Source: Opitutales bacterium
GTDB taxonomy: Bacteria > Verrucomicrobiota > Verrucomicrobiia > Opitutales > PNEW01
DNA: 64,000 bases
Assembly: GCA_965197745.1 (NCBI GenBank)
Contig: CBDANS010000007.1
Coordinates: forward strand, 736,001 to 800,000
Reading direction: 5' to 3'
In this document: positions 25,819 to 61,210 of the stretch, piece by piece
How the letters are laid out: every line of letters begins with the position of its first letter
Numbering within the stretch: position 1 is the stretch's first letter
Translations under genes and position numbers: made by a program
The notes under the pieces: model-generated
The model's database searches: none
What the model was told of the DNA's origin: nothing
The model's input: only the letters and a program-made list of their open reading frames with translations

Positions 25819-25937
25819 AATGGGTTTTTAAGCTAAAATCCTGGGTAAATGAGTAACAATGAATTATAGCCACAAAATACACAAAAAAGAGAGAAAGATT
25901 TTACAGGAAGGCCGGGAAGAACGGGAAGTATAATAAG

Positions 25938-26526: not shown

Positions 26527-26530
26527 AAAG

Positions 26531-26826
26531 AAAATCATTAGATTTTCTGTGTTAAGTTTTAGGTGTTAGCTGCCGTCGTATAAACTAGGGCGTACCAGGG
26601 ATTTTAAGTAGAGTTTGAATCAATCTCTCTCTTTCTATTTATAGCTTTGTCACCTAAACACGTGGCAAGCCATCTTTTCGGCGACGATTGGTGCCTTTGA
26701 AAGATCACGCTTCGCTCTGGTAGTAGCCTACCTCTTCTTTTTCTCCCCGCTTGCCACGCCATAGCCCTTAGCGACGGCAGGGCCTTCGACTCTTAACTTA
26801 AAACCTAACACCTAAAACTTAACACA
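26531..26826. repeat. Empty heptamer-arm element containing mini-inserts
   Basis: Left AAAATCATTAGATTTTCTGTGTTAAGTTTTAGGTGTTAG; right CTAACACCTAAAACTTAACACA (reverse complement). Confidence 0.85.
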
Positions 26827-26840
26827 TCCCTATTTAGACG

Positions 26841-28729
26841 CTAGTCTAAATAGGGATCGTACTCCGGCACAAACTTCCTTATACACTCCTTGATCTCGTT
26901 TCCGGGAAGATCAAGCATGCCGTTATTTTTTAATTCATTAAAAAATTCCTCTACCCCATTGCGGTTGTTCGATACATTGGCAAAGCGAAAAATGCGTGGG
27001 TGTTCGGTCTCTTCGTGCATCTCCTCTATGTGTTGATATTCTTCGAAAAGTTTTTCCCCGGGGCGAAGTCCGATATATTTGAGATCGATATCGATGCCCG
27101 GGCGGAATCCACTTAACTCGATCATTTGTTTAGCCAGGTCGACGATTTTTATCGTCTCTCCCATGTCCAAGACAAAAATTTCTCCTCCTTTTCCCTGGGT
27201 TGCAGCCTGTAGGATAAGACCCACCGATTCCGGTACCGTCATAAAATAACGTGTCACGTCGGGATGCGTTATGGTGACAGGTCCTCCTTCATCAATCTGT
27301 TTCTTAAAAATAGGAACTACGCTGTTAGACGATCCAAGGACGTTTCCGAATCGCACTGCCATGAAATGGGTCTTATTCTCCAGCTTATTTTGTTTGGTCT
27401 GGATATATATTTCCGCCATGCGTTTGCTTACTCCCATGACACTTGTTGGATTAATCGCTTTGTCCGTCGAAATTAAAATAAAGTGCTCTACAGAATACTT
27501 ACTGGCAAGATCAGCCAGCAACTCAGTTCCCAGGGTATTATTCTTAATAGCTTCACCCGGTTGCCGCTCCATCATGTGAACATGCTTATGCGCAGCGGCG
27601 TGAAAAACAATCTGCGGTTGGAAACGCTGAAACAAACTGTCCATCCGTTTTTTATCAAGAATATCAGCGACCAGGGGAAGAACGACCGAACCGTAACCTT
27701 CATCTTTCAACTGTTCTTCAATTTGAAAAAGGGTTCCTTCAGTTTTCTCTACCATGAGGAGGCGACGGGGGTTATTGAATACTACCTGTCGACATAATTC
27801 ACTGCCGATGCTACCTCCCGCTCCTGTGACCATGACTACTTTGTCCTGGATCATGTGTTGAATATTTTCGGAGTCCAGTTTGACCGGTTCCCGACCGAGC
27901 AGGTCCTCTACTTCCACCGGTCTCAATCGATTAGTGCGAACGGTCCCTGTCGTTAATTGCGCTAATGAAGGAACGATTTCTGCCTTTAGATTAGCTTGCT
28001 GTGCAGCTATGATAACTTCCTTGACTCGCCATGCTGGAGCTGAAGGCATGGCAATAATAATTTTTTCGATCCCATATTTTCTTTTTATCGCATTGAGCCT
28101 GTCGATTCCATTAATGACTTTAATTCCATGCAGATTCAGATTCCACTTTGTTTCATCGTCATCTAAAAAAACAACAGGGCGCATCCCAAGACCCCGTTTT
28201 GATAATAAGTCACTGGCGATGGTTTCACCGACATCTCCGGCTCCAACGATGGCAACATTTTCAATTTCATGGGGAGTAGCAGATCCTCCTGAAAGGTAGC
28301 GTTCACGGATAACGCGCATGGAAAGCCGGAATCCACATACGAGGATAAATGAAAAAACAAAATCCGCGAGAATGACACTTCGGGGAGGTGAATAGCTGCC
28401 GCTACTGAAAAACCAGATACAAATGAGAATTGCGCTGGATACGGCGAGTGCGGAAAAATACGATACAGATTCGGTAATCTGAAATAGCTGAGCATCCCTC
28501 CATATTGACCGAAGGGCCAAAAAATTATCAGCTTTAATGGTACTATTATAAGCAAATTAGCAATGCGAGCTGTCTGATGGTGCAGGGGTACCTGGAAATC
28601 AAAACGCAGTTCATAGCCGATAAACAGGTTGACCGTAAATATTATCATGTAGGCAAAAAAAAAGATGAGTGCCTTGAATGGCACTAATACCTTTAAAAAA
28701 GAAAATATCGCTGAACTCCTATTAGGCAT
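26841..28729 (-). pseudogene. CapD/PglF-type nucleotide-sugar dehydratase, split by a 1-nt frameshift at ~28454-28458
   Basis: TM N-terminus in ORF 28163..28729; TGAGGSIGSEL, HAAAHKHV, STDKA and RPGEKL in ORF 26841..28520. One extra T joins them. Confidence 0.85.
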
Positions 28730-28776
28730 AGGGAAAATATCAACAGATATACTCTTATTTTACTGTAAGAGCGGAT

Positions 28777-29904
28777 CTAAAAACAAGAGCGAAAAACTTC
28801 AGAAACGCGCTTTAAATCGTCTTGTGTGAGCGATGAACCCGAAGGTAAACACAAACCTGAATTAAAAAGCTCTTCTGCTACCTCTCCACCATATACTTGA
28901 GCATCTTTATATAAGGGTTGAAGGTGCATGGGTTTCCATACCGGACGGCACTCAATGCCTTTACTCTCCATTGTCTGGCAGATCGCTTCACAATTAGTTA
29001 CCGCATCTTTTGATTTTACCGTCAGACAAGTTAACCATCGTGTCGAACGCCCGTAAGGAACATCCGGCATAAACGCTACTCCCGGTAAATCATTGAGAGT
29101 ATTATAATAGTATTCGAAATTAGCGCGACGCGATTTCACTCGCTCATCAAGAACCTTGAGCTGTCCCCTCCCGATTGCAGCCAGAAGATTACTCATGCGA
29201 TAGTTATAACCGAGTTGGGAGTGTTCGTAATGGAGAGCTGAATCTTTAGCCTGATTTGCAAGAAATCGCGCTTTATCAACAATATCAGAATCATTAGAGA
29301 CCAGCATGCCACCGCTGCTCGTTGTAATTATTTTATTTCCATTAAAAGAATATACTCCCGCCCATCCAAGAGTTCCTGTGAACTTTCCGTTATATGATGA
29401 GCCCAATGCCTCCGCGGCATCCTCAATGACTTTTATCTCATAGCGATTGCATACATCAATGATGGGATCAAAGTCGGCACTCTGTCCATAGAGATGGACT
29501 ACGATCACGGCTTTGGGCAATCGGTTTTGTGTTGCTCGCTCTTCGAGAGCCGTCGCCAGTAATTCAGGATCCATGTTCCAGGATTGCCGATCGCTATCGA
29601 TAAAGACTGGCTTAGCTCCCTGGTAGAGAATGGGATTAACCGAAGCCACAAACGTCAGTGTGGAACAAAACACCTCGTCCCCGGGTGACACGCCAGCCAT
29701 TATAAGCGCAAGATGCAGTGCGGCTGTACCTGAACTTAGTGCAACAGCATGTGATGCACCTGTAGTAGTGCAAAATTCTTTTTCAAACGCATCCACATGT
29801 GGGCCTACCGGCGCAATCCAATTGGATTCGAAAGCGTCTAATAGCAAGTCCTTTTCTTTATCACCTATATCTGGCGGTGAAAGATAAATTTTTAATTTTT
29901 TCAG
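28777..29904 (-). CDS. DegT/DnrJ/EryC1/StrS sugar aminotransferase
   Basis: SSGTAALH, EDAAEALG, SFNGNKIITT. In-frame IYLSPP lies upstream of the track start; CTG at 29904 is proposed as start. Confidence 0.9.
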   Translation of the reverse strand: MKKLKIYLSPPDIGDKEKDLLLDAFESNWIAPVGPHVDAFEKEFCTTTGASHAVALSSGTAALHLALIMAGVSPGDEVFCSTLTFVASVNPILYQGAKPVFIDSDRQSWNMDPELLATALEERATQNRLPKAVIVVHLYGQSADFDPIIDVCNRYEIKVIEDAAEALGSSYNGKFTGTLGWAGVYSFNGNKIITTSSGGMLVSNDSDIVDKARFLANQAKDSALHYEHSQLGYNYRMSNLLAAIGRGQLKVLDERVKSRRANFEYYYNTLNDLPGVAFMPDVPYGRSTRWLTCLTVKSKDAVTNCEAICQTMESKGIECRPVWKPMHLQPLYKDAQVYGGEVAEELFNSGLCLPSGSSLTQDDLKRVSEVFRSCF

Positions 29905-29959
29905 ATTTAGAAAAGTGTTGTATTGATTTATTGCAAGGTCAGTACAGAGTCTTTAAAAT

Positions 29960-32512
29960 TTAATTTTGTAAGTGAGAGGGCAACTCAAGAATACTCAAGT
30001 CATCAATCCAAAAATAGTCATTAGGTTCTTGGTTATTAATTTCTAGCAACAGATAACCGTTAATTGCATTATCAGGAGCTTCAGCAAGAATAGCGAGACG
30101 CGTCCAATCCTGTATGTTTCCGTAAGGAAGTCGATCTCTTGGTTGTAAATCATAGTAATTCCCTTGTCGATCACGCCATCTAACCGTGAGAGCTAATTTG
30201 CTGGCTGGACTAATCACACCTTTATGCCAAGACGTAAACAGATATGACCGTCCAGGCAAAACGGGTACCATTTGATAAATTAAAGTTGCATCCGAACCTC
30301 TAACCTCCATACCCCATTCGCCGGTCCGCGCGGCATAGTGATTTAAACTTATGCGTACTGACTTTGCAGGTCTTATATTAATTATCCATTTGTTCGGCCA
30401 AAGAACGAACTCATCAATATCCGATACTCTGGTTATCTCAAGATCTGTATTATGTAAAATTTCTCGGGCAAGCGAATGATTTTCGAGATAGGATTGAAGG
30501 ATAAACAGGTCATCTTTTGTTTCTTTATTTGCAAATTGTAATAGTGGCAGACCTTCTTCTTCCCACTGCTGATTATATTTAGCCCACTCTAAAGCGTTAA
30601 CTATAACTCGATCTGCGGGGTCAGAGTTAAATAGATAATCAAAGTCAGAAAGATATTGGTTCAATGGATGAGATGATTTGAGACGATGATTATGATCTTG
30701 TAAATTTTTCTTAATATCCCAGTAATTAATAAGCACATCCTGCAGAGTTTGGATATCCTCCAAAGTATCAATTCGTTTTCGTGCCAAAACATTTTTAGCA
30801 TTTTGGTACTCGACTAATAACTCAGTCATTCGAAAGGCTTCGGAAACCAGTTCTACACGTTTTTGGACTATGGGGTGAATTGCTTGTGAAAGAGCACCAT
30901 CAAGGATCCTTCGTAATTTTACACATACTTTGCTAGAGAAAAGAGTTGCTTGGTTCACGTCTTTAAAATACTTGATCCAACGAGCGGGTACAGGTTGATT
31001 CAACCATTGCTCTTCACATTTCTCGAAGAAACGCCGCATGGGTCTGGCGGTTTCCTGGAAATAATTATGGTAATATTCATCGAGTAGCTTTTCTGAAGAT
31101 TGATTTATATTCCAAAGTAACTTCGCGGCTAACCAGAGTTTAGGTCCATCGAATCCCCAAATAGGATTGGTTTCAGCGTAAAAAGCACGCACTCCAGTAT
31201 TATAAGCATACTTCAAACTTTCAGTTTCCAGAGAAAAATAAATCCGTGGGATTGTGTATCGAAATCCATAGTAGTAATCGTAGATGCCAATAATTTCCGG
31301 TCCAGCATTTACCCATCGTTGTATAAGCGCCTTATCCTCTTTCTTGAATACAGGATCATACCATTGACTGCGGTCGGCAGTGAGGTAGGGTAAGACCTTG
31401 GGTTCTACGGGAAATGTCGGCGTATTTTCACACCAGAAGTAGGCCAGGCAACCAAGATATTTATCGGGATAAGAGGTGGCTAACTTTAGGGCTGCTTCAT
31501 TCATAAAATTGAATACGTAATCGGAATAGTCGGGTCGACCGCGAAAAAATCGCTTAGGTTCTACGAGACCTGAAGTGATAGGAGTGTCGCCTAATCGGAC
31601 ATTATCATTAAGCCCCAATGAAAAGCTGATTGTATTCTTATTATCTTCGAAATGTTTTTCTGCAAACTCTACAGCTTCTTTGGCGACTTCACTATTAGTT
31701 AAATCGGGTTGCCATAGTGTATCTTCTGGCCCTTTAGGACGATATCGCTTACCATTGACAACTGGAAACCACTCGGGATGATCCTCATAATCCTGGGGAC
31801 GTATGACGCGATGGATATTGTGGTGGAATGCAAATCGCCCACGCAATAAATTGCGACGCATCCATAGTTCACTTCCTTCCCCGCTCATTCCGCTAAATTC
31901 GCGTGAGAGAAAATCAGGTTTAACATTTTCATCGATTAAGGGTAATACCCAGGATGTCTTCTTGGAAATATGCTCACCCAATTCCGTGGGTAAATACCAA
32001 CGTACCCCTCCGTATTTCTGCAGAAACCAGTAAACAGCAAAAGCCGTAGCATCCGGTGTTAATCCTGCAAGAATTAGTCTATCGCCATCTGTACGTATAA
32101 AGAAAGAATCTTTATCTATTAAATTACTTAACAAATCTAAATTTTTTACCAATTGTGTATTACCAATAAAGATTCCAGCCGTATCTTGATAGAGATGTTC
32201 TTGAATTATAGTATAAGTATGACCAGACATAGAATTGAGAACACGTGCAAAATCTTCAGCTATTTCTTGTTCAAGAGTATTCGAATTCTTTGGCAGTACT
32301 ATCTGCAATCTAGGTCCAGATTCATTAAAAACTGTAATTGGTTTTGAATCGGATATATGGTGACCAATTAAAAAAGAAAAAAAACATAAGACAGTTCTAT
32401 AATACATGCAATGTTTTGATATTACTCTACCTATTGCATAGATATCTCGGAACTGTATCATAATTGAAATTACATAAGAAGATACATGTAAGGTAATGAA
32501 AAAAAACCTCAT
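29960..32512 (-). CDS. DUF4838-like putative carbohydrate-active protein with a C-terminal CBM-like domain
   Basis: ATAFAVYWFLQKYGGVRW, QPDLTN, SLGLND, LAY pattern recognised by eye; start uncertain. Confidence 0.65.
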   Translation of the reverse strand: MRFFFITLHVSSYVISIMIQFRDIYAIGRVISKHCMYYRTVLCFFSFLIGHHISDSKPITVFNESGPRLQIVLPKNSNTLEQEIAEDFARVLNSMSGHTYTIIQEHLYQDTAGIFIGNTQLVKNLDLLSNLIDKDSFFIRTDGDRLILAGLTPDATAFAVYWFLQKYGGVRWYLPTELGEHISKKTSWVLPLIDENVKPDFLSREFSGMSGEGSELWMRRNLLRGRFAFHHNIHRVIRPQDYEDHPEWFPVVNGKRYRPKGPEDTLWQPDLTNSEVAKEAVEFAEKHFEDNKNTISFSLGLNDNVRLGDTPITSGLVEPKRFFRGRPDYSDYVFNFMNEAALKLATSYPDKYLGCLAYFWCENTPTFPVEPKVLPYLTADRSQWYDPVFKKEDKALIQRWVNAGPEIIGIYDYYYGFRYTIPRIYFSLETESLKYAYNTGVRAFYAETNPIWGFDGPKLWLAAKLLWNINQSSEKLLDEYYHNYFQETARPMRRFFEKCEEQWLNQPVPARWIKYFKDVNQATLFSSKVCVKLRRILDGALSQAIHPIVQKRVELVSEAFRMTELLVEYQNAKNVLARKRIDTLEDIQTLQDVLINYWDIKKNLQDHNHRLKSSHPLNQYLSDFDYLFNSDPADRVIVNALEWAKYNQQWEEEGLPLLQFANKETKDDLFILQSYLENHSLAREILHNTDLEITRVSDIDEFVLWPNKWIINIRPAKSVRISLNHYAARTGEWGMEVRGSDATLIYQMVPVLPGRSYLFTSWHKGVISPASKLALTVRWRDRQGNYYDLQPRDRLPYGNIQDWTRLAILAEAPDNAINGYLLLEINNQEPNDYFWIDDLSILELPSHLQN

Positions 32513-32514
32513 TT

Positions 32515-33141
32515 TTACCTAATAACTGTCTTCCAAATATACCCCAAGTCTTTCCAAAATTTATAATTACTAACATACTCGCGATTGATGCGGACCTTTT
32601 CAGGCCAGATCACTTCGTCATTGTATTTTTCAGGTTTAGTTTGCTCAGCCAGTAATTTTTCTTCATTGCGAAAATGTAAGGTGGCTGGACCGGTAATGCC
32701 TGGACGCACACTTAAAATGATGCGGTCTTTTCCCACGAGTTTGTCTGCGTAACCCGGAATATCTGGACGAGGGCCAACAAAACTCATTTGTCCAATTATA
32801 ATATTAAACAATTGGGGTAGTTCATCGAGCTTTGTCTTTCTTAAATATCGTCCGATGTTGGTAATTCGTGGATCGTTCTCAGAAGTGACATTGGTATGAG
32901 GTCCCAAATCATTTCGCATAGTTCGAAATTTACATACCCGAAAAATTCGACCATTACAGCCAATACGATGCTGGAGGAATATTCCGCTTTGCTTAGTACT
33001 AAACGATGTAAGCACATAAAGAATCAACATTAACCACCCTGTCAGCAGTAAACCAATAAATGCCCCTAGTAAATCAAAGCTTCGCTTGGCGATTCTCTGT
33101 TGCAAAGTCAAATTCCCTTTGCGGTATTCATATATACCCAT
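32515..33141 (-). CDS. Bacterial sugar transferase (initiating phosphoglycosyl transferase)
   Basis: KRSFD, KFRTM, DELPQL, MSFVGPRP, RPGITG. Confidence 0.95.
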   Translation of the reverse strand: MGIYEYRKGNLTLQQRIAKRSFDLLGAFIGLLLTGWLMLILYVLTSFSTKQSGIFLQHRIGCNGRIFRVCKFRTMRNDLGPHTNVTSENDPRITNIGRYLRKTKLDELPQLFNIIIGQMSFVGPRPDIPGYADKLVGKDRIILSVRPGITGPATLHFRNEEKLLAEQTKPEKYNDEVIWPEKVRINREYVSNYKFWKDLGYIWKTVIR

Positions 33142-33982
33142 ATCGATCCAAAGTATCTCCTATTAGTGGCAGCAAATCTTTCTGAATTTCACCATATGTG
33201 AATCTTTTTCGCCAATTTCCCACACTCTTGTCAGATACGCTAGCGGTAATTCGCTCTAAATCTATGCTCGTTGAGCTGATCTCAAGAAAATTCAGAATCC
33301 TTTTGAACTCTTTTGCTGGATCGCGAACGAACTTCTCATACTTTAGACGACATATTCGATCTTCAGATATTCTCTGTAACCCGCGTTCGGAATTCTCAAT
33401 GCAGCGTTGCCATTGAAGGGCAGCAACCTGCTCTAAACTCTGTGATTTCAGTGCATTCTCAAACCCTTTAAATCGTGGACCCCAAAAGGCCAGTTGTTTA
33501 TTACTTGAAAAGACTTTTATTAACCTATTCATAGCGTAGTGAATGGCATAGTAGGGCAAATCACATAATGGAACATAACAGGCTTTTTTCATCAGGTAGA
33601 CGGGATCTAAAGATGCCTTCCATCGCTTTAATGCAGAGGCCACAACATCTCTACCATCCCGAAAAATGAAAAGGTATCTTGCTTCAGGTAAAACTTTATT
33701 CACGAACTCAACTCGCAATGAATTAGCGCACGTCTTCTCGACTACATTATCAACGGACAGTTTCTTAGCTATAAATTCAAAACGGTTCCTGATGTAATCA
33801 CGTACCACGGGGTGCGCCATATCTTCTGATAGTTCATCTGTTATTTCCGACCTATTTCCGTGCCTCCAAATATAATTGATCTCATCACAAGGCCAAGTTC
33901 CAAATTTAGGTAACGTACAGAGTAGGTCACGCAAAATATTAGTACCACTACGCCCAGCTCCGATGATGATAACGGGTTTCAT
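33128..33982 (-). CDS. Sulfotransferase
   Basis: GAGRSGT PAPS-binding loop; RDGRDVVAS. Confidence 0.9.
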   Translation of the reverse strand: MKPVIIIGAGRSGTNILRDLLCTLPKFGTWPCDEINYIWRHGNRSEITDELSEDMAHPVVRDYIRNRFEFIAKKLSVDNVVEKTCANSLRVEFVNKVLPEARYLFIFRDGRDVVASALKRWKASLDPVYLMKKACYVPLCDLPYYAIHYAMNRLIKVFSSNKQLAFWGPRFKGFENALKSQSLEQVAALQWQRCIENSERGLQRISEDRICRLKYEKFVRDPAKEFKRILNFLEISSTSIDLERITASVSDKSVGNWRKRFTYGEIQKDLLPLIGDTLDRYGYI

Positions 33983-34801
33983 AGTTTAAATACCAACAGT
34001 TTTAAGCAATGGCTCTAACTGGTTGATAGGAATCTGTGTTCCACACGCACAGGTTTTTCGGCCGTTGTATGCATATATCCCAGTTCATGGTAGAAGATTA
34101 CGGGACGGAAAAAGGAATCAAGAATGAACAGGTTAATGACAAGGGTTGTATTCGATTGAAATGAAGGAGGTGATGCTATTAGAAGATCTGAGTAATACCT
34201 AATGAACGAACACTGCCTACTATCTTGCATAAGCTTATCTAATCATTGACGATGAGAAAAAGGATAGGCTATGATCTGTGTGATAAAATTCCTGATCAAC
34301 ATTCTTTTTTCTAATTACCCGAGAGGGTAAACCCATTTATCCTTACATGAATATACTACAAGACAGTCTTTCTTAATTTTCTCACAGTGGAACCGGGATA
34401 ACCTTTTCTCAGGTCGCTGCAATCTAGGTTTTTGCTAACGACTTCCTCGACCACCGGCTTTAGCTATACATTTTTTTAAAACTAATAGATAATATTTTAT
34501 AAAATTATAGAGAGGCACAAGCTAGCTGAGTTTCCTCGTTCTGCAAACGGTTCTATCTCATTTTCAATCCCAATCCTTTAGATTTTTGTGATGAAGTAAA
34601 TAATCATGTACTTGTAGATAAACTAGCGGTACTAAATTTATCATTGAAATTAACAAGCCAATAAAATCATCTAATAATTTATTAGATGCTGGAATAATTA
34701 AATTATAGATGTTCCTTTTACTACTTATGTATTAGCTCTATTAGATTTCCCAAAAAACTCATCAATTGTTTAATTCACACCAAAAATACTGTAAATAGCG
34801 T

Positions 34802-36152
34802 TGATCGGACCCCGTATTTCGTATCAAATTTTAAGTGAGAGAACTACCGGGTGTTAATGGTTTTAGGATTGATGTATATGAGAGATCTTGGCGCAGTGAG
34901 GGCGTAGCCCGAACGCGGCCAAGAGCGGAAAGGAATGTGACAAACTCTTGTGGGCTTTTAAAGCCTAATCGACTGTGGGGATGTTCATTGTTATAGGTCT
35001 GACGCCATTGTTCTATTAGCACTTGCGCTTCAGCCACGCTGAGCAACACTTCACGGTTCAAACACTCATCGCGTAAGCGGTTGTGAAACGACTCGATGAA
35101 ACCGTTTTGCCAGGGACTGCCCGGATCGATATATATCGCCTTGATCTTTTTGTCGGACAACCACTGCTGCACCTGATGAGCAATGAATGGCTTCGCATGT
35201 CGTCGCTTCGCTCCTCGGAACACTGCCGTTGTCACTGCGGATATAGCTAGGAACTCCCTCTTCATCGATGGTTTCGCTGAGTACCGAGAGAACATCGGTT
35301 GAGGTGAGCTGTCGAGCTACCCGGATGCGTAAACATTTACGCGTATATGTCTTCGCTTCGCTTGAGTGTCGTCGCTTTCAGCTCCTCGGTACATCGATCA
35401 AGGTCATCATCTTTAGCATACCGCCATTGTCTGTACGATCATGGACAAAGTCCCAGGACCAGACGTGATTGCGACCGGTTGCTTTAGTAGGGAGCCCAGT
35501 AGAGATCCCCTGACGGTGTCTACGCTTTTTCGGTGGCTTTACCTGTAAGCCCGAAGAACGTCGCACTGCCTGTACAAATTTCCTGCTTGCCGCCCAACCT
35601 TCTTTCACCAGCAAGGCACGAATGCGCCGGTAACCGTAACGGGGATGTTCCCAGGACAAGGTCAAAATCCGCTCGGCCAATTGCTGAGCCTTCTTACTGG
35701 CCTGCTTGGGTCGGTAGCTGTACGTTGACCAACTGAGGCTGAGATAAGCACAAGCCCTCTAAAACGAGCACAGCCCCTTCTCAGCCGCATCTTTTACTGC
35801 TCGCTTCTTCTGCTTTGGGCTCACCATTTTTTTGAGAGCGTTTCCTCCAACACCCGAAGCTTGAGCATTTGATCAGCGAGCATCTTCTTCAGCTCCGTAT
35901 TCTCCTTTTCCAGCTCTTTAAATCGCTTCGCATCAGCCAGCTCCAAGTTGCCATACTTTTTGCCCCAGCGATAGAAGGTCTGTTCACTTAGGTTGTTGCC
36001 GTGGCAGACTTCCTGCACGGTTTTGCCCGTATCGGGCTGCCGCAGTATTGCTATGATCTGTTCTGTTGTATATCTTTTTCTTTTCATTGAGGTTATCTGT
36101 TTATCCCGATAACCTCTCTCTGTTAATGATACCATTTTTGGGGGTCACTCCA
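34802..36152 (-). mobile_element. Degenerate IS3-family insertion sequence
   Basis: Imperfect IRs TGATCGGACCCC..GTATCA / TGGAGTGACCCC..GTATCA. OrfA MKRKRYTTEQII..KKW with an A7 run. OrfB with WSWDF, SDNG and PWQNGFIESF, broken by a TAG and two short inserts. Confidence 0.92.
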
Positions 36153-37430
36153 CCTGCAATTACATTGCTGAAAAAGCTGTTTCTGCTCCTGCCCTGGATC
36201 CTCGCGGGAATCTTTATGCTTATCAGCATTCTTAACCCGGCTTACGAGAGATATTTTTTACCCAATACTCAAGACGCTTTTCGAAGAATAGATTACAATA
36301 ATTTATTACCCTCAACGGTAGATGTGGTGCGAACAACAGAGAAAGTTTCACTCTTAACCGGTGTGATGGCGCTCTCTGTTGCCTTGTTCTATCTCGTGCG
36401 TCGAAGACGGGATATACGTCTTATACTGAATATCATCTTCATCAACAGCCTTGTCTTAGGCATTGTCGGTACGGTGTTTAACCTGATGGGAACTGACCGT
36501 ATTCTTGGAATGTTTGATCCCGTCAATACCATGTTTTTTTCCAGTTTTCGCTACCACAACCACTGGGCTGGGTTTACTCTCCTTTGCCTTGGTGTGGGGC
36601 TGGCGCTTTACAGCTACTATCACAGTAAAGACGATGCCAGGAAAAGTCGGTCTCGTACATCCACTTTTTTTCTCGGGATGTTATTTTTTTTAGCGTTGAG
36701 TATCCCTTTATCGGGGGGGCGCACGGGCATGCTTCTGCTAATTGTCATGGGGGTATTATTTTTCTTCAGGCTTTGGTGGAGTGAAATTCAAAAGCGCCGA
36801 AGGGGATATCACAGAAGATACTTATTAACTAAGTTAGTCGCAGTCGTCACTGTCGTCATGGTCGTCACCTGGCTGATTTATCAACTCGGTGAGGAGATGA
36901 TCCAAGTTCGCTGGGAAAAATCGATTCATCAGTATGAAGATATATTAAGGGGTGAGGCAATGGAAATGCGGGTATATTCCACACGTGACACACAGGGTAT
37001 GGCGTTGGACAAACCCTGGTGGGGTTGGGGTTTAGGTTCTTTTACCTACGCTTTTAAACTTTATGCGGGACCTGAGTTCTACCGTGGAAAACACTATTTA
37101 CGCATGGAGTTCGCCCACCAGGACTGGCTGCAGTATTGGGCCGAATTGGGGACTGTGGGTTTTGCCGCCTTGTTAGCTCTCCCCGTATTCATTGTCATTA
37201 TTGTTTTGAGACGAGGAAAGTCCAACCCGGTTACGGGCTGGCTAGCGGTCGGTTGCGGCCTGATCCTCGTAATGGCTTGTTTTGAATTCCCCCTGAGCAA
37301 CCCGGCGATTATCGCCCTGTTTTTTATACTCGGAACTCTCGCCGCGAAGTATGCGTTATTAGAAAGTCAAATGTCAAAGGTCGAAGGTCGAAGGCGGGAT
37401 GGGGAAATGGGTGAAAGCGATAAAGGGTGA
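36153..37430 (+). pseudogene. O-antigen ligase-like membrane protein, probably 5'-truncated by the IS3
   Basis: SGGRTG, GWGLGSF, AHQDWLQ..AELG; the first ~29 codons of the track ORF lie inside the IS. Confidence 0.8.
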
Positions 37431-37575
37431 ATGCGGATTGATGCAGGATACAGGATGCAAGATGCAGGGTAATATAACCGCTTATATACCTATTCGCTTC
37501 AACGCATGTACGCATGCTCTCGTTTACACATATACCTTAGACTTTAGACCTTCGACTTTCGACAAAATCGAATAT

Positions 37576-37956
37576 TCAATTCGATTTTAATACCGCATCA
37601 TATTTCGCTTTATTGGCAAATAGGAGGTAGATATTCAAAGCGGTTACGATGAGGGCGACGGGGATGCCTTTGAGGTCGAGGGCGAGATGGTAGAGGATAA
37701 TATTGACACTGAAGGGTGCGAGCAGGAGGAGAGCGAGAGCGACATAGCGGTTTATAAGTAACATCACTCCGACCCCGATTTTTACGACCCCGATCATGGG
37801 GAAGATGTATCCGGACTCCGCGAAAGCTCCTAAGAGTTTACCGGCGTCTTCCGGCGGTTCAGGCATAGGCATGAAATGAAAAAAGGTGTTCAATCCAAAT
37901 AGAAGAAGGATCACACCGAGAAGAATACGAGCAACGAGATCAATTTTTGACTTCAT
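37576..37956 (-). CDS. DoxX family membrane protein
   Basis: ARILLG..FGLN.F, multiple TMs, P..VNI..YH. Confidence 0.8.
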   Translation of the reverse strand: MKSKIDLVARILLGVILLLFGLNTFFHFMPMPEPPEDAGKLLGAFAESGYIFPMIGVVKIGVGVMLLINRYVALALLLLAPFSVNIILYHLALDLKGIPVALIVTALNIYLLFANKAKYDAVLKSN

Positions 37957-38137
37957 ACATTTTAATTTACAGGAAGATCGGGGAGGACGGGAAGAAAATT
38001 ATAGCCACAAAAAGCACAAAATGAGAGAGGGAATTGGCTGACAGATGTCGTCACGTTAAAGCAAGATGTACAATATATTTAACCACGAATGACACGGATA
38101 TCTAATATATATAAAGGAGTTGAATAGGGGATTAATG

Positions 38138-38972
38138 AGGAGTCTAAAGTCGAATGTCTAATGTCGAAAGTCGGAAAACGAAGAATTTTTACAGGAAGAT
38201 CCAGCCGTCGCCAAGGCTATGGCCTGGCAGGCGGGAAGAACGGGAAGAAAATAATAGCCACATTTCAGGAAGAGAATAAACCACGAATGGACGCGAATTA
38301 GCGCGGATTACCACGGATATTTTATATAGAGAAGAGTTAATTAGCCACCAACCGTCGTCCCGCGGTGGCGGGACTATGGTCGGCAAAGCAAGATGCACTA
38401 CCAGAGCACAGCGAGATTTTCTAATGACACAAGATACCTTCAGGTGAAAGTTAGTGCTTAATCGCAAAAGCTCAGCAGTAGCTGAGCTTCGGCTGTTCCT
38501 TACCGTTTTTTTAATTTTGATTTAAAAAACCGCGTAAAGGATTATCCGTATCAGTTCCGCTCGCGTGCGCGTGCGGGATGACTTTGCGATGAAGCATCGT
38601 ATTTCACCTTTTCTTAACTTCATGTATTTAAATCCGCGACATCTGCGTAATCCGCGTCTCCGCGACATCCGCGTAATCTGCGGTCAGATATTTCCGTCTT
38701 TCCCGCTTGCCACGCCATAGCTCACTAGAGCGACGGTGGGATCTTCCTGTAAAATCCCTCTCTTTTTTTGTGTCTCTTGCCTGCCGGTCATAGTCACGGC
38801 GTCAGTTGTTCATATCCGCGAAAGTATAAAAAAGGAATAATGATGTGTTATAAAGTGGAATCTCGGACGCAATCGGCCGTCGTCCTTACAAATACAGGAC
38901 TATGGCCGACAGGCACCATGCGTCCCTCCAGAAAAAGGAATATCGACTTTTGACATTAGACCTTCGACTTGA
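38138..38972. repeat. Multi-layer nested repeat element
   Basis: Heptamer arms outside, two kinds of 9-mer arms inside, central structured core. Confidence 0.85.
38439..38610. other. ~175-nt four-way-junction element, copy 1
   Basis: Near-identical to 39988-40162 and 42623-42797. Confidence 0.8.
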
Positions 38973-38998
38973 TCCTCCATCATTCAAACGATGGAGGA

Positions 38999-39685
38999 TC
39001 AAAATTTATATCCATGTAGCTCGATTTCTTTTCGGAAATGGGTTTCGATGATTAATCGCTGTTTTTCGTTGAGGACTTCTTGATAGGGTCTTTTGTCTTT
39101 TCGGAATTCGGATTTTGCATGGACGTGGAGTGATCCGTCAAAGGGAATGCCGAGATGATTAAAGACTTCGCTGAGTTCCTGGTTTAAATTCTCATTCCGA
39201 ACAACTCGATCAACGATGATCTCACCTTTGTCATTCGTGTATTTTTGGAAGCTTACTGGAAATTCACCTCGGGAGAAATACTCATCTAAAGAGAGCCTAC
39301 CGCCACTGCGGTTTCTTTTCATATAATAATGGGACAATGTCTTGTCCCAGGAGTTTCTCTCTACACAAAATTTGTAGTAGCTATCCCAGATTTCTGCAGG
39401 CAGATATTTTTTAATTAATTTTGCAGGAATATGATTAAAGTATTTTATCCCGGAAAAAAAATGTTCAATGGTTCTTCTCTTCCTTTTCCATTTCATGGCC
39501 ACCATTTCCGTAAAAGGATTGAATAAACCTTTATAGTTTCGCGGTTCATGAAGTTCATCGGGTGGATTAAGGGGTGTGACAATATCATTTTCACCACAAT
39601 GTTGAGATAAATAAATTTCAATGCTGGAACCCGCTGTTTTTTCCATCTTTATAAAGATGAATTTATACTTATGGGAGAGGATCAT
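38999..39685 (-). CDS. Sulfotransferase family 2 protein
   Basis: MILSHKYKFIFIK..KTAGSSI; YKFCVERN.WD...S. Confidence 0.85.
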   Translation of the reverse strand: MILSHKYKFIFIKMEKTAGSSIEIYLSQHCGENDIVTPLNPPDELHEPRNYKGLFNPFTEMVAMKWKRKRRTIEHFFSGIKYFNHIPAKLIKKYLPAEIWDSYYKFCVERNSWDKTLSHYYMKRNRSGGRLSLDEYFSRGEFPVSFQKYTNDKGEIIVDRVVRNENLNQELSEVFNHLGIPFDGSLHVHAKSEFRKDKRPYQEVLNEKQRLIIETHFRKEIELHGYKF

Positions 39686-39987
39686 TGTGACTAGGAGTCA
39701 AAGGTCGAAGGTCTAAAGTCGAAAGTCTGAAAAATGAAGATTTTTGCAAGACGGCCGGAAAGAAAAGAATAGCCACATTTCAGGAAGAGAATAAACCACG
39801 AATGGACACTAATTTACACGAATATTATTTAAAGGATGAGAAAGAAAGAGATAGCCACCAGCCGATGCCGAGGCTATGGCAGGCAGGCAAGAGGCACCTA
39901 CCGACTTCCCGCAGTGGCGGGACTATGGCCAGCAAAGCAAGATGCACTACTGGAGCACAGCGAGATTTTCCAATGACACAAGAAAAC

Positions 39988-40162
39988 TTCAGGTGAAATT
40001 TGGTGCTTAATCGCAAAAGCTCAGCAATAGCTGAGCTTCGGCTGTTCCTTATCGCTTTTTTTAAATTTTGATTTAAAAAACCGCGTACAGGAATATCCGT
40101 ATCAGTTCCGCTCGCGTAGCAGTGCGGATGACTTTGCGATGAAGCAACGTATTTCACCTGAA
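39988..40162. other. ~175-nt four-way-junction element, copy 2
   Basis: Outer stem TTCAGGTGAAA..TGCTTAATCGCAAA / TTTGCGATGAAGCA..TTTCACCTGAA. Confidence 0.8.
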
Positions 40163-40238
40163 TTAAACCCAAAATTAGTATCCGCGATATTCGCGTCATC
40201 CGCGGTTAGATCTTTCTGCATTTTTCTTCTATGGTGCT

Positions 40239-40994
40239 TTACCTCATACACTCCACATACAATGACCCGGGTTTGTATTCCTTGTTGTCCTGAATATCGA
40301 GGTTTTCTGACAGATATTCTTTGTAGAGGCTATTATTATAAGTCATCTTTTCGATCTTACTAAAACCATTTTGACGTAACCAATAGGACAGACTCTGCCA
40401 ATCATAAGTCCAGAAGTGGCGTTCACCTGAAACCTCAAATCCGGACTTTCTAAAAAGATTTTTAATAAAACTTTTGATATTGATTTTTGAATGGGGTGTA
40501 ACATCGGGTTTATCAAGTAACTGGAGCAATTCGCTGCTCAGAATTGGGCGCAGCCATTTTTGATTTTCTACATTTCCTCTCGCAGCTTTTAAAAATGATG
40601 CTTTTTGGCCTCCAGATTCGGTTCGAGTCAATTGATCGAGGAGTTCTATCATGTACCAGTGATGTTTGACTGGATTATCCTGGTTAAGTTCGACGCTCTT
40701 AATATAATTACGTGTTAAGACTTCCAAATCGGGTAGGGAAATTCGAAAAACACCGCCGGGTTTTAGACAGCGACATACCTCTCTCATTAAAAACTGACCA
40801 GTCTCTATGGGGAAATGGTCGAGAACATGTGAGGTGTAGACAAACTCAAAGGAATTGTCCGGATAGGGAAGTCCTTCCCAGAGATTAACCTGCTTAACAA
40901 ATGGGGGGTGCGAGTGAACATCTACATTCTCACAGGCATCTCCCTTGTTGTAACGAAAACCACAGCCTATGTTTAATTTTATTTTAGAATCCAT
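40239..40994 (-). CDS. Class I SAM-dependent methyltransferase domain protein
   Basis: LNIGCG, LPYPDNSF, SHVLDH, LKPGG. Confidence 0.88.
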   Translation of the reverse strand: MDSKIKLNIGCGFRYNKGDACENVDVHSHPPFVKQVNLWEGLPYPDNSFEFVYTSHVLDHFPIETGQFLMREVCRCLKPGGVFRISLPDLEVLTRNYIKSVELNQDNPVKHHWYMIELLDQLTRTESGGQKASFLKAARGNVENQKWLRPILSSELLQLLDKPDVTPHSKINIKSFIKNLFRKSGFEVSGERHFWTYDWQSLSYWLRQNGFSKIEKMTYNNSLYKEYLSENLDIQDNKEYKPGSLYVECMR

Positions 40995-41096
40995 ACTGGA
41001 TGTTAATTCGACCTCGGATACTGCTCATATATATGACCGTCCCTAATCAGGATCAAAGTTCTTAAAGATTTTAGATTAACGGGTTTCAGGTATTTC

Positions 41097-42107
41097 TCAA
41101 TAACGATTGGCCCATGACGTCACTAGAGTTTCATGTAAACGCGAATAAGGGTGTTTTTTTTCACCCTCTAGAGAAACCCTCTGTATTAATTGATATTGAG
41201 GTTTATGAAACCACCCAGTTGTTCCAAAGTGTAGATCTACGCTATTGTCTTCCAACATCATTTTATAATACTCATGGCTCACTCCCATATCAGAAAAAGG
41301 AAAAGCGAATATTCTGTGTTTTAACTGAAACTCTTCTTCTAAAAAGCGCATACTCTCACGGGTCTGTCTCAGTTGTTCATCGAGAGAAAGAATTGTATAA
41401 GGCGGATGATCTATGCTGTGCGCGCCAATGGCAAATCCATCATTTATTAATCCCGTTATCTGTTCTCTGTCCATGTACGGTTTAACTCGAGCCAGATATT
41501 CCGAGAAATTCAAGTCACATAAGTGAGCGATCTCATCCAGTAAATCTCTATGGTGATAATCAATACCCTTTAAGCTCTCTTTAAACTCGGTGTATAATAG
41601 ACCACGGGTTTTAAATTTATCCTTAACCGCATTTTGCAATATTTTACTTGAAGAGTTTAAATGTTGTTCAATGAGCAAGCTTACTTTGAAGCGATAGAAC
41701 AGATCTTTGTTTTCCCAAAAGCTGGAACTGATAAAAAAGGCTGCAGGTAAACCTTTCCTCTTAAGAATAGGGGCGACGATTTCTGACATTTCCCTAAGTC
41801 CATCATCAAAGGTAAGGAATACGCTACGGGATGGCGGAGGTTTTCCGCTCCTGCTATAATCCAGTATATCATCCAATGATATAGGACTGAATAATTTAAG
41901 AACACACTCGAGACTATCACAAAAATCTTTTACTCCCTTATACCTGTAAAGGTGCCGAATGTGGCCGAGGGGCTCATCACTTACAACGTGGTAATAAAGG
42001 ACTAATAGATTTCTACCGGTAACGCGTAAAAGTAGGCTTAGGGGCATGCAAGCACCCACACCCGTAATAGTTCGGTGCACCCCATTTTTCACTAACCGCT
42101 TTATCAT
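41097..42107 (-). CDS. Polysaccharide deacetylase (CE4/NodB)
   Basis: TFDDG, HSIDH, FAFPF. Confidence 0.9.
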   Translation of the reverse strand: MIKRLVKNGVHRTITGVGACMPLSLLLRVTGRNLLVLYYHVVSDEPLGHIRHLYRYKGVKDFCDSLECVLKLFSPISLDDILDYSRSGKPPPSRSVFLTFDDGLREMSEIVAPILKRKGLPAAFFISSSFWENKDLFYRFKVSLLIEQHLNSSSKILQNAVKDKFKTRGLLYTEFKESLKGIDYHHRDLLDEIAHLCDLNFSEYLARVKPYMDREQITGLINDGFAIGAHSIDHPPYTILSLDEQLRQTRESMRFLEEEFQLKHRIFAFPFSDMGVSHEYYKMMLEDNSVDLHFGTTGWFHKPQYQLIQRVSLEGEKKHPYSRLHETLVTSWANRY

Positions 42108-42622
42108 CTATTACCGCTTCCTCTCTTACGCACAAAAAACAATAGTATTAACAGTTTATTGTGTAACCTTATGATCTCTATTAATATACCTACATATTGC
42201 AGTTTTTACCACTTCGAATTACGCCGGCCTCCGCCTCGACAGATATAGATCGTAACATTCTTTACCGAGCGATTGGGTCAGTTTTTGAGCTGAAGGACCG
42301 TCAGCCACGGGTAGGTGGAATATCATTTTTCGGGGGAGTGCATATGAGGAGTCAAAGGTCGAAATCTAGAATACAGGAATATTTTTTACAGGAAGAGCGG
42401 AAAGAATAGCCACATTTCAGGAAGAGAATTAACCACTAAAGGACACTAATTAATACAGATATCTAATTTTTTAACCACGAATGGACACGAATTTACACGG
42501 ATATTTTATATAGAGAAGAGTTAATTAGCCACCAACCGTCGTCCCGCGGTGGTGGGACTATGGTCGGCAAAGCAAGATGCACTACCAGAGCACAGCGAGA
42601 TTTTCTAATGACACAAGATAAC

Positions 42623-42797
42623 TTCAGGTGAAAGTTGGTGCTTAATCGCAAAAGCTCAGCAGTAGCTGAGCTTCGGCTGTTCCTTACCGTTTTTTTAAAT
42701 TTTGATTTAAAAAACCGCGTACAGGAATATCCGTATCAGTTCCGCTCGCGTGTGCGTGCGGGATGACTTTGCGATGAAGCAACGTATTTCATCTGAA
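42623..42797. other. ~175-nt four-way-junction element, copy 3
   Basis: As copies 1 and 2; flanking homology extends ~42404-42850. Confidence 0.8.
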
Positions 42798-43025
42798 TTA
42801 AACCCAAAATTAATATCCGCGATATTCGCGTCATCCGCGGTAAGATCTTGCTGTTTATTTTTGTGCCTCTTGCCTGCCGGTCATAGTCCCGCCACTGGGG
42901 GACGACGGTTGGTGCCTTTGAAAGATGTCGTCCCGGTGTCGCGGGACTCGGTAGTGGCTATCTTAAAAAAACCACAGCAGTGAATGTTACTGAAATAAAA
43001 GTTAAAGAATGGGCTATTTTAACTT

Positions 43026-43265
43026 TCAGCTTTCGACATTTGCCTCTTTAACTTCCTTCGGGGGATCTTTCCACTGAAATTCGGTGTTCCCGGGGATGCG
43101 GTCAGAGATATTCCAGGTTGCATGACCGCGTTTGACGGCTTCATTTTTAAAAAAGGCTAATTCCTTATGCGCCTCTTCCAAGGCGATGATTTTAAAATAA
43201 TAAGCGATAATGGACGCAATTAAACCAATTAAGCTAAGCACCATCGCTAGAAATACAAAGGCCAT
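43026..43265 (-). CDS. Small hypothetical protein with an N-terminal TM
   Basis: 79-aa ORF, co-oriented with neighbours. Confidence 0.6.
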   Translation of the reverse strand: MAFVFLAMVLSLIGLIASIIAYYFKIIALEEAHKELAFFKNEAVKRGHATWNISDRIPGNTEFQWKDPPKEVKEANVES

Positions 43266-43271
43266 GGGGGA

Positions 43272-43460
43272 AAAATCAGTAGATTTTTAGTGTTATGTTT
43301 TAGGTGTTAGGTATTAGGAAAGAGCAAATATTCAAAAAGTCAAAATGTAGCTTCGCAGTTTTAGCTGTAAGATTGAATCATAACAAAAATGTGAAATTCA
43401 AATTTTTCTTTAACTTAACACTTAAAACCTAACACTTAATACTGAAAATCGTTAGATTTT
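43272..43460. repeat. Empty heptamer-arm element with AAAATC-N4-GATTTT palindromes at both ends
   Basis: Palindromes at 43272-43287 and 43445-43460; inverted heptamer runs inside. Confidence 0.88.
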
Positions 43461-44581
43461 CATTCTTTTGACATAGAAATTTCTAATTTAGAAATTTCTA
43501 ATTCCTTCGTCATTCCTTCAAACCATTCTATGACCTCTGTATGTAAGGGTATTCCCTTAACGCGCCGCTCTTGCTCTTCTTCATGTTCCAGCATGCCGGG
43601 GTAAAGGACGCGTTCTTGGCCCGGTGCCGGTTTTGTTTCCCTGATCATCTTGAGCATGCGATCCATGTTATCTTTAAAGATATCGAGATCGGTGAATGCT
43701 TCGATGTCGTAGGCGACGAAATGATGTTTATGCGTCATACCCGGTTCACCCGGGGATGCGAGCATGCTGGGAATGGAACCTGCCAATATTGACCCGAGGA
43801 TTTCTGTTACCATCGCGAGCCCATAACCTTTATGGGAACCCTGCTCTCGCGTGCCGCCCAAGGGGAGTATATGTACAGGGATGCCATCCTTGAATTCAGG
43901 TACGCGAACGGCTTCCATTATGGGAACACCTTCGGCATCGGCAATCCAGCCTGGGTCCAGTTTTGACCCTATTCTGCGGGCGAGCTCAATTTTATTTCCG
44001 GCGACTGAGCAAGTCGCGGCGTCATATAGAAAAGGGGCTTCATTGCGTGTAGGTGCCGCGAGAGCAATGGGATTTGTGCCAAGCAGACCTTTTGAAGCAA
44101 AAGTTGGCACTACTTGTGTACCTGCAGCAGTCGTTACCAGACCTACCATATTGTTTTGAACCGCTTGCATGGCATGATGGCCGATGGCACCCGAATGGCC
44201 GCTGTTATAAACGGACACAGCACCGATGCCAACCTGCTTAGCTTTGTCGATCGCGATTTGCATCACATGACGACCAATAATGATGACTAAACCTCTATCC
44301 GCATCAATGGTCGCCGTTCCAGGCTTTTCACGCATAATCTTCCAATTGGCCTGCGCGTTGATATCTTTATTTTTATACTGCGTATGGTAAGCTCTCAGCA
44401 TATTAGATACACCGTGACTTTCCACTCCACGCAGGTCAGAAGTTACGAGCGTGTCTGCCGCGATTGCGGCATCTTCTGGAGTCTCACCCATCTTTTCAAA
44501 AAACTCCGTCACCGTTCGGCGTAATGATTCCTCCGGAACAATGACCTGTTCTTTTATCGGGACTTTGAAACGTTCTAGCAT
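43460..44581 (-). CDS. Ldh_2 family (malate/lactate/ureidoglycolate-type) oxidoreductase
   Basis: DLRGVESHG, GTNPIA, HKGYGL, YPG..E. Confidence 0.92.
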   Translation of the reverse strand: MLERFKVPIKEQVIVPEESLRRTVTEFFEKMGETPEDAAIAADTLVTSDLRGVESHGVSNMLRAYHTQYKNKDINAQANWKIMREKPGTATIDADRGLVIIIGRHVMQIAIDKAKQVGIGAVSVYNSGHSGAIGHHAMQAVQNNMVGLVTTAAGTQVVPTFASKGLLGTNPIALAAPTRNEAPFLYDAATCSVAGNKIELARRIGSKLDPGWIADAEGVPIMEAVRVPEFKDGIPVHILPLGGTREQGSHKGYGLAMVTEILGSILAGSIPSMLASPGEPGMTHKHHFVAYDIEAFTDLDIFKDNMDRMLKMIRETKPAPGQERVLYPGMLEHEEEQERRVKGIPLHTEVIEWFEGMTKELEISKLEISMSKE

Positions 44582-45726: not shown

Positions 45727-46285
45727 AGTCAAAAAGTCAAAAGGTCAAAAAGTCAAAAAATAAAAATCCTTGGATTTTTAGTGTTATGTTTTAGGTTAGA
45801 GATTGAATTAATGCATGAAGTTTTCCTGATATCATTTTTGTTTCAGTAATTAATGCATTAGCTTCTTTAGATGGTATAAGGCCAATATTTTTAGCGATAA
45901 ATAATTGAGTTCGAACTTCAGCAGCTGAACCTTTAGCATAACCAAGAAATAATTTAAACTCATGTATCGAGTTTCTCTCAGCTCCCTCTGCAATATTTGA
46001 AGGTATCGAAACAGCTGCTCGCGATATTTGATCTCTAAATCCGTAATTACGTGAGTCTTTCAATTCGGAATATATACTTATAACTAAAGCACACGCTCTT
46101 TGCCAAACATCCAGTTCTTCGAATGATTGATAGGCCATGACTTAAGAGTTAAAGTGTATTTCTACGCGATTATCGGAAGAGATAACTAGATGATATAAAT
46201 CGACAGTTAATACCTGACGATTAATAGTGAAAAATAATATTATTTCTTCGACTTAACACCTAACACCTAAAACTTAACACAGCAA
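45727..46285. mobile_element. Putative element: inverted heptamer arms carrying a four-helix-bundle gene
   Basis: Left arm palindrome plus AGTGTTATGTTTTAGGT; right arm ACTTAAC ACCTAAC ACCTAAA ACTTAAC ACAG. Mobility is inferred only. Confidence 0.6.
45791..46138 (-). CDS. Four-helix-bundle protein (23S rRNA IVS protein-like, TIGR02436-type)
   Basis: FEELDVWQ, DQISRAAVSIPSNIAEG, FLGYAKGSAAEVRTQL. Confidence 0.95.
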   Translation of the reverse strand: MAYQSFEELDVWQRACALVISIYSELKDSRNYGFRDQISRAAVSIPSNIAEGAERNSIHEFKLFLGYAKGSAAEVRTQLFIAKNIGLIPSKEANALITETKMISGKLHALIQSLT

Positions 46286-61183: not shown

Positions 61184-61210
61184 TCGACGCTAAGATAAAC
61201 GAACTTAAAA

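Follow-up and report, generated by a model that had tools for sequence, protein, structure and literature searches.

Concentric layers of hairpin-forming repeats nested in one intergenic gap of an Opitutales genome

Positions 38138-38972 of a 64,000-nt stretch of an Opitutales bacterium (the window: contig C7:736001-800000 of genome G000, to which all window coordinates refer) hold a nest of inverted repeats in which one pair of arms encloses the next. We favour, with moderate confidence, the reading that this nest is a layered pile of non-coding, hairpin-forming repeats of known kinds in one gap of a variable polysaccharide region. Every layer belongs to a dispersed family, the core and the hairpins resembling repetitive extragenic palindromic (REP) sequences are discrete inserts, and blocks of the nest have been duplicated whole. 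The outer arms persist across genera while the interiors turn over, and nests flank gene gains as well as one gene inversion. The gap itself measures 1,042 nt and lies between the minus-strand open reading frames (ORFs) 37576-37956 and 38999-39685, in a neighbourhood of polysaccharide-type genes (Wzy_C, methyltransferase, polysaccharide deacetylase and sulfotransferase). The host genome comprises 4.45 Mb in 7 contigs with a G+C content of about 45%, and the window is the region of highest array density in all of it.

An earlier note on this DNA had placed three concentric pairs of inverted arms around a structured core here, and all were recovered, the closing stem of the core making a fourth pair. 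The repeat search returned I1 (38139-38173 with 38944-38978, 35 nt, 86%), I4 (38187-38211 with 38730-38754, 25 nt, 92%), I3 (38216-38246 with 38691-38721, 31 nt, 84%) and I5, the closing stem of the core (38442-38468 with 38583-38609, 27 nt, 78%). Each left arm was then aligned locally with the reverse complement of its right arm and compared with 2000 shuffles per pair. The heptamer arms scored 45 and the F arms 66, scores reached by none of the shuffles (0/2000 in both cases), the core closing stem scored 28 (1/2000), and the 9-mer (E) arms, the weakest of the four pairs, scored 21 over 19 aligned nt (3/2000). Folded as single-stranded DNA, the 835 nt reach -169.1 kcal/mol compared with -107.8 +/- 6.4 for 20 shuffles (z -9.63), and the layers pair concentrically in the minimum free energy structure. 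From outside to inside the order is heptamer A arms, F arms, the K word (TAGCCACA), arms of 9-10-mers (left arm CACGAAT.. and CGCGGAT.., right arm ATCCGCG..), the hairpin H2 and the core (Table 1), and Tandem Repeats Finder (TRF) reported period 7 at 38141-38173 and period 9 at both 38232-38249 and 38632-38682. The picture drawn in the note needs qualification on three points. The nest is concentric but not fully symmetric, since right-side positions 38755-38935, which contain a degenerate H hairpin and a G hairpin with an H in its loop, have no partner on the left. The F arm, described there as a 9-mer arm, is so only in part (CGGGAAGAA x2) and holds a 30-nt inserted hairpin. The simpler nests listed for the window do have their left-type and right-type arrays on the corresponding sides, but several have only one arm of at least 3 units.

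The arrays that make up the arms are dispersed throughout the host genome. A unit-chain scan of all of G000 (arrays of at least 3 units, with an order-3 Markov sequence as control) found 74 arrays of family A, 62 of C (GTGTTAG), 46 of X (GACGAA) and 44 of B (a GCG-8-mer) together with a few others, against 0-2 in the control. Pairing by TRF consensus yielded 30 inverted pairs only, missed many and was dropped in favour of these scans. Most A arrays (69/74) lie less than half within crude ORFs and are in this sense intergenic. Among neighbouring arrays at most 400 nt apart (n=64), the arrangement was '><' in 34, '<<' in 18, '>>' in 9 and '<>' in 3; two of the last three belong to family X, the left form of which was labelled reversed, and the third consists of two adjacent elements. 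With equal odds, at most 3 of 37 in '<>' has p ~6e-8 by our own arithmetic. Where B lies inside A, same-side cases number 11 versus 1, two of the 11 being probably one locus, as the ends of contigs C4 and C7 are duplicated. At these ends, C4:212763-213104 and C7:1604-1945 are mirror images in fold energy (-84.7/-104.5 versus -104.5/-84.7) and in array string; the two contig ends probably repeat each other in reverse, with a few arrays counted twice.

Polarity also holds around the core: of the 156 non-H module tokens at most 420 nt from the 31 aligned copies, 155 are on the expected side; the order of modules is variable there, except that heptamer A arms stand outermost. The arm polarity proposed earlier requires no rule beyond the copying of elements with inverted ends: any such copied element shows it in either orientation and, since flipping a palindromic element restores the same arms, polarity argues for whole-element copying rather than for a separate rule. 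The informative point is nesting instead of side-by-side placement. A general rule of 'purine-rich arm first' was also considered and rejected, since in the hexamer family TCTTCG is the left form and GACGAA the right one. Beyond this genome, three successive GTCRAAR units were found in at least 121 stretches from many phyla, and 80 fetched loci contained paired arrays in the arrangement '><' six times and '<>' once. GTC.AA. is retained in the heptamer arms, yet neither arm copies the other: in clean heptamer pairs (n=6) the variable unit positions agree at 14/44, with ~0.4 expected by chance, and one of nine A pairs has a 7-mer arm facing an 8-mer arm.

At the centre of the nest lies a 176-bp element that we refer to as the core. 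It was followed into two complete, syntenic genomes of a sister genus, G001 and G002, with 7 matches in G000, 22 in G001 and 13 in G002. In an alignment of 31 copies from the three genomes, mean column identity was 79% and RNAalifold gave a structure of 42 pairs, 15 of them with compensatory changes. Pairing holds in 94.3% of cells versus 34-48% with slid partners, and none of 500 shuffles reached any of the measures; a third hairpin, seen by eye, is not placeable in the alignment columns. G:U cells exceed A:C cells by ~43 to 15 on the aligned strand, 15 of the G:U cells coming from one pair, which is a weak hint that the aligned strand matters. The borders are sharp in the 31 copies, with ..AT preceding CAGGTGAAAC and AT.. 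following GTTTCACCTG between unrelated flanks, and orientation bears no fixed relation to adjacent genes. Of 201 genomes sampled from the order, 3 contained the 28-nt end pattern, and all three belong to one family; judged by this pattern in these genomes, the core is a new structured repeat family confined to one bacterial family. Metagenome contigs contained four true cores and the viral contigs scanned contained none, and neither scan found an autonomous partner of the core. An ORF between two cores on a metagenome contig, considered as a transposase candidate, is a SASA esterase.

The REP-like hairpins, termed H, form a second class of insert. The H motif has 96 matches in the genome, approximately 70 of them true copies by eye, in sub-families set by host context, and the nest carries four such hairpins of 18-29 nt with a CGTC motif. 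H occupies the loop of some hairpins of the form 'GGACGC..GCGTCCCTCC' (G) and is absent from others, such as the G copies at 60869 and 61215, and in G002 an H hairpin interrupts a heptamer unit within an array. A 30-nt copy, H1, in the left F arm is mirrored at the same position in the right F arm, the two arms aligning over 64 nt. The other local copies, B, C and Z, lack H1 in their F arms, as do, by eye, further F arms inspected, including that of the G001 locus; the mirrored position of H1 requires arm-to-arm copying or inverted duplication. The claim that arms diversify separately and are not fixed inverted repeats stands for the heptamer arms and is not supported as regards the mirrored H1.

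Comparison of orthologous gaps, as the earlier note had proposed, bears on the age of the layers. In-order tblastn hits were obtained for 29/40 and 34/40 of the window ORFs in G001 and G002, respectively, and a fourth genome, G003, gave no match. Some 12 orthologous gaps have the outer A arms in two of the three genomes or in all of them, with interiors that hold other modules or none, and at four gaps arrays are absent from all three. Conserved outer arms with differing interiors fit a history in which the outer layers are older and the inner ones younger. The nest itself falls within a variable region (25819-43459) that spans 21.3 kb in G000, 4.3 kb in G002 and 18.0 kb in G001. Directly after the orthologue of ORF 37576-37956, G001 has one simple nest, F> E> core <E <F <A, where G000 has three. 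These are collinear unit copies (38120, 39680 and 42320) within 5 kb, aligned over ~520 nt and differing by discrete modules, with cores 91-96% identical mutually and 75% identical to that of G001. For whole nests, the statement that arms are not copied as fixed inverted repeats is not supported as it stands, as such block copies exist. A tblastn comparison of ORFs 38999-39685, 40239-40994 and 41097-42107 with the two syntenic 80-kb stretches gave no hit. Elsewhere, in a sugar-related cluster of G001 and G002, the two genomes have the SASA esterase gene in opposite orientations between two cores, with a third arrangement on the metagenome contig, and G001 alone has a rhamnosidase gene with a full nest on either side. 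The facing arms of successive nests constitute inverted repeats around each gene, and ordinary recombination can explain such rearrangements.

In the reading we favour, new palindromic elements would land in the loop of a resident hairpin, or would be tolerated there alone, and the pile would grow in this way. The heptamer arms lie a median of ~10-12 nt from ORF ends, as defined by the crude ORF calls that we used for array-gene distances and strand tests, and this leaves the loop as the sole free DNA in the gap. Later change may have involved slippage within arms, loss of single arms, occasional copying from arm to arm and recombination of one nest with another. Should the arms pair in the transcript, a cut in the outer stem would be conceivable by analogy with the intervening sequences (IVSs) of 23S rRNA, and the content of the loop would then be harmless. 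The three PF05635 (23S rRNA intervening-sequence protein) genes of G000 speak for a link with IVS-type elements: all of them reside in the loops of array hairpins, and the arm family differs from one to the next. The serial insertion envisaged in the earlier note is partly supported: the sharp ends of the core, the presence or absence of H and the shared outer arms speak for it, and the block copies, the mirrored H1 and the lack of a fixed order do not fit it as stated.

Several observations weigh against this reading. No enzyme that might mobilise the elements, a transposase or another, was identified. The core flanks, mostly ..AT and AT.., may extend the palindrome, and they include no clear target-site duplication. 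No widely spaced pair of core ends that might enclose a transposase partner was present in G000, and the listed pairs in G001 and G002 lie ~145 nt apart, six matches being unlisted. A search of G000, an assembly 92% complete, gave no reverse transcriptase. A single Y1 (RAYT) transposase gene (PF01797; C6:163380-163706), a candidate mobiliser of H, is present in that genome, and its flanks lack H-like inverted repeats. Simple insertion does not account for the mirrored H1. The left and right neighbours of the core are often unmatched, for example F> core <E, and module order is variable; many of the 'layers' are therefore half elements, and their layering history is inferred rather than seen. 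With regard to an RNA-level role, folding of 38 array hairpins gave no sense-strand bias and hence no support, the top strand being better in 6 and the bottom strand in 8 for '++' gene pairs, and in 6 and 4, respectively, for '--' pairs. Finally, nesting could reflect the scarcity of other neutral space and not a preference for loops.

Table 1. Features of the nest, its neighbouring copies and the PF05635 genes (window coordinates unless a contig is given).
Feature	Position	Strand	Support or remark
Left outer arm, family A: 4-5 tandem GTCNAAN heptamers	38139-38173		TRF 4.7 copies
Right outer arm: NTTNGAC heptamers, 86% complementary to left	38944-38978		0/2000 shuffles
Left F arm: TTTTACAGGAAGATC, H1 insert (~38202-38231), then CGGGAAGAA x2	38187-38250		H match 38205-38222
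Right F arm with mirror-image H1' (~38706-38739)	38690-38754		H match 38715-38736, minus
K module AATAATAGCCACA; recurs left of cores, complement TGTGGCTA recurs right	38250-38262		
Left 9-10-mer arm, modules N/E: CCACGAATGG ACGCGAATTAG CGCGGATTAC CACGGATA	38279-38320		TRF 38292-38310, period 10
REP-like hairpin H2: CGTC motif, 7-bp stem GTCCCGC/GCGGGAC, 4-nt loop	38352-38385	+	Motif match 38352-38379
Core: ~176-bp element, 28-30-nt inverted ends around three internal hairpins	38441-38610	+	Fold z -4.7, -4.6
Right 9-mer arm: ATCCGCGNN x ~6	38632-38684		TRF 5.8 copies; also period 26 x1.9
H3, degenerate H hairpin, reversed	38778-38800	-	Repeat search and eye
G hairpin GGACGC...GCGTCCCTCCAGAAAA with H4 (38877-38905) inside loop	38865-38935	+	
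16-nt hairpin over stop codon of minus-strand ORF 38999-39685	38969-39002		94% pairing
Partial direct copy of left half (F, K, N modules), just ahead of nest	37966-38137		
Second composite-unit copy	39686-40238		Core 91% identical to first
Third composite-unit copy	42340-43040		Core 96% identical to first
PF05635 gene, 115 aa, in loop of A>C>...<C hairpin (arm family C)	45791-46138	-	
PF05635 gene, arm family A	G000 C7:805210-805551		
PF05635 gene, arm family B	G000 C6:20087-20398		

A possible, though rather unlikely, alternative is that selection keeps the hairpins as intercistronic RNA signals, serving RNase III processing, stabilisation or the control of translation starts, and that the nest is a by-product. 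Arrays indeed abut ORF ends, with 22/31 of those beside 3' ends and 29/42 of those beside 5' ends within +/-30 nt, and orthologous gaps agree in having or lacking arms, the four that are armless in all three genomes included. Precedents exist as well: one source describes the 23S rRNA IVS of Coxiella as a 28-bp stem with tandem heptamers in which RNase III cuts (PMC4990558), and another describes TAACTGA heptamers before start codons in Beggiatoaceae, where they are proposed to regulate translation (PMC4679880). What speaks against such signals is the missing strand bias noted above and the lack of complementarity between the variable positions of the arms, which leaves stems with ~2 mismatches per 7 nt, along with the pair of arms of unequal period and the unconstrained interiors.

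It is also conceivable, if doubtful in our opinion, that the hairpins constitute one active genome-wide system, in which arms would be rewritten across loci, possibly via the four-helix-bundle PF05635 proteins, the stem would be excised and the nests would act as joints at which sugar-related accessory genes come, go and flip. This proposal draws on the analogy with IVSs, on the loop position of the PF05635 genes noted above and on the 8-mer form in all 9 displayed gaps of G001, at most of which G000 and G002 keep 7-mers. Were it true, the outer stem would be excised from transcripts and the loop would become a safe landing pad.

We give little credence to a dedicated, integron-like cassette system in which the nests are joints and a putative enzyme moves and flips sugar-related genes. 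Three extra genes accompany the three nests of G000 in place of the one nest of G001, the rhamnosidase gene and the SASA esterase gene show the arrangements described above, and cores cluster in such gene groups. These are three events only, and dispersed inverted repeats rearrange genes likewise by ordinary homologous recombination. No recombinase was linked to the nests, housekeeping genes (mutS, exbBD, DAHP synthase and mdh) are flanked by nests too, and cores that resemble each other more closely within G000 than they resemble that of G001 are a better fit to local duplication or conversion than to cassette import.

Growth of arrays in situ, through slippage during replication and through strand switching at hairpins, with no copying between loci, appears just as improbable. 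In its favour, units vary inside arrays, the arms differ from each other, and both copy number and unit type vary between orthologous gaps. On the other hand, the GTCNAAN unit recurs at 74 places with constant arm order, and non-repetitive centres and cores are common to several loci. By eye, G001 has the 8-mer form in 9/9 displayed gaps, at most of which G000 and G002 keep 7-mers, and at the ldh2-epim gap, where G001 has 8-mers, the left arm is identical over 30 nt in G000 and G002; for a single lineage to switch its unit at many loci, copying between loci is required.

The earlier note had also called for support from raw reads. Logan contigs from four runs in three studies tile 37400-40400 and match the nest sequence, with 0-3 differing letters and at most one gap in the pieces 37400-38282 and 38349-38514, 0-2 differing letters in the piece 38485-39797 of runs X1, X2 and X5, and none in run X4, where the same part comes in two pieces (38568-39004 and 38997-39797). 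The heptamer arms have no indel listed in any of the four runs; the best-matching run may be the source sample. That repeats were wrongly joined in the assembly is extremely improbable: although the short-read contigs end at repeat borders, with 38283-38348 bridged by none of the listed pieces, and several 'joints' to paralogous copies are listed among them, near-identical pieces come from all four runs and G001 holds a nest at the orthologous place.

A number of further features were recorded in and around the window. An A/B/D hairpin sub-family with the common non-repetitive centre TAATMTAACCGC occurs at 37470, 52630, 53606 and C7:804294; four intergenic copies within 31 kb suggest local spread, and two more matches to the motif elsewhere have no adjoining arrays. 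The PF05635-bearing hairpin at 45791-46138, together with an SSF transporter gene, is missing from the same gap in G001 and G002. Between mutS and holB (1718-3417), an alpha/beta hydrolase gene (1994-2821) has arrays and REP-like hairpins on its flanks; in both relatives this gap is just 157-198 nt long and contains a simple A hairpin. Tandem genes of 1094 aa (18890-22174 and 22534-25818), encoding a family-5 solute-binding domain fused to an ABC permease domain and separated by a gap full of arrays, map to one gene in both relatives, and the duplication is accordingly specific to G000. One gap of G002 (C2:1478960-1479345) combines an A array, a K word, an H hairpin, AACAGTG heptamers and ~17 CCCTGAA heptamers, and its place in G001 is taken by the rhamnosidase gene with its two full nests. 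On the minus strand at 34831-35295, a low-G+C part of the polysaccharide region contains a fragment (154 aa) of an IS3-type transposase (rve_3).

Candidate identities from databases were set aside. At gathering thresholds, the sole Rfam family matched was Acido-Lenti-1, at two places of the window outside the nest, 3313-3359 (39.6 bits) and 61137-61183 (43.8 bits; gathering score 37), each of which ends a ~200-nt repeated block of other small hairpins (~3150-3360 and ~60985-61185). With E-value thresholds on 37900-43500, mir-248 alone appeared, at chance level (28.9 bits against a gathering score of 90), in core copy C. The ORFs 38189-38467 (92 aa) and 39825-40199 (124 aa) traverse repeat modules, the latter has no Pfam or NCBIfam family, and we take both to be spurious. 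A reading as integron attC sites was judged by eye only and set aside: family C has GTTAGGT/ACCTAAC-like words, and the order of its arms is opposite to that of the attC consensus.

Hairpins built of heptamer repeats occur widely and have lacked an explanation for decades. The locus described here and its two syntenic relatives provide a natural time series of conserved outer arms and lineage-specific inner layers, and the occurrence of simple and elaborate nests at one place, along with a genome-wide change of unit type in one lineage, makes questions of origin testable, such as copying versus growth in place and which layer came first. Nests moreover mark the borders of gene gain and inversion in sugar-related clusters. 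If they are debris, their value lies mainly in annotation, as with the spurious 92-aa and 124-aa ORFs.

Heptamer repeats are known in cyanobacteria as short tandemly repeated repetitive (STRR) sequences, and a 2008 paper on small dispersed repeats of cyanobacteria reportedly dealt with nested small repeats. The heptamer arms of the nest are of the same kind as STRR sequences, the arrays of Xanthomonas and those of 23S rRNA IVSs. The nest shares with the Coxiella IVS (PMC4990558) its complementary ends, its long stem and the heptamers in the arm; unlike the IVS, it sits between protein genes and not in rRNA, and 38138-38972 is without a PF05635 gene. For Xanthomonas, Rehm et al. (2015; PMC4692102) describe GGGAATC heptamers in convergent array pairs on opposite strands, 70 and 75 in two genomes. 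The likeness comprises intergenic tandem 7-nt units, convergent close pairs and partly conserved unit positions. The unit of the nest, GTCNAAN, is by contrast not G-rich and hence without quadruplex potential, which makes it another family of the same kind of repeat. Here, furthermore, at least six unit families coexist and stack, arrays abut ORF ends, and the host belongs to another phylum. A literature search gave only the heptamer papers on Xanthomonas and Beggiatoaceae, no search directed at the stacking of several layers having been made.

The H hairpins invite comparison with REPs, which Di Nocera et al. (2013; PMC3733652) describe as tagged by GTAG or CGTC and in some cases located inside longer palindromes, with a Verrucomicrobium (O. 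terrae) highly enriched in the GTAG type. Like the CGTC-tagged REPs described there, H is a short palindrome with CGTC at one end and a 4-nt loop, the latter in its commonest, 28-nt form (37/96 matches), and it often lies inside palindromes. Its stem, GYCCCGC, is 7 bp long and GC-rich, unlike the 8-9-bp stems starting with complementary A/T that are given there, and its tail is TATGG instead of CCA; only the loop agrees with the 4-5 nt of those REPs. The CCGTCG before the H stem was required by the search pattern and so is not independent evidence of likeness; the other end of H is CTAT (ATAG on the opposite strand).

The core, in turn, recalls MITEs (transposable elements of the miniature inverted-repeat kind) in its small size, its 28-30-nt inverted ends, its many non-coding copies and its sharp borders. 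It departs from a plain MITE in that its internal hairpins are conserved with compensatory changes and that neither a partner transposase nor a clear target duplication was found. As a whole, the nest is a mosaic of modules, much like the bacterial interspersed mosaic elements (BIMEs) of Escherichia coli, and probably represents a new arrangement of known kinds of repeats rather than a new kind of system.

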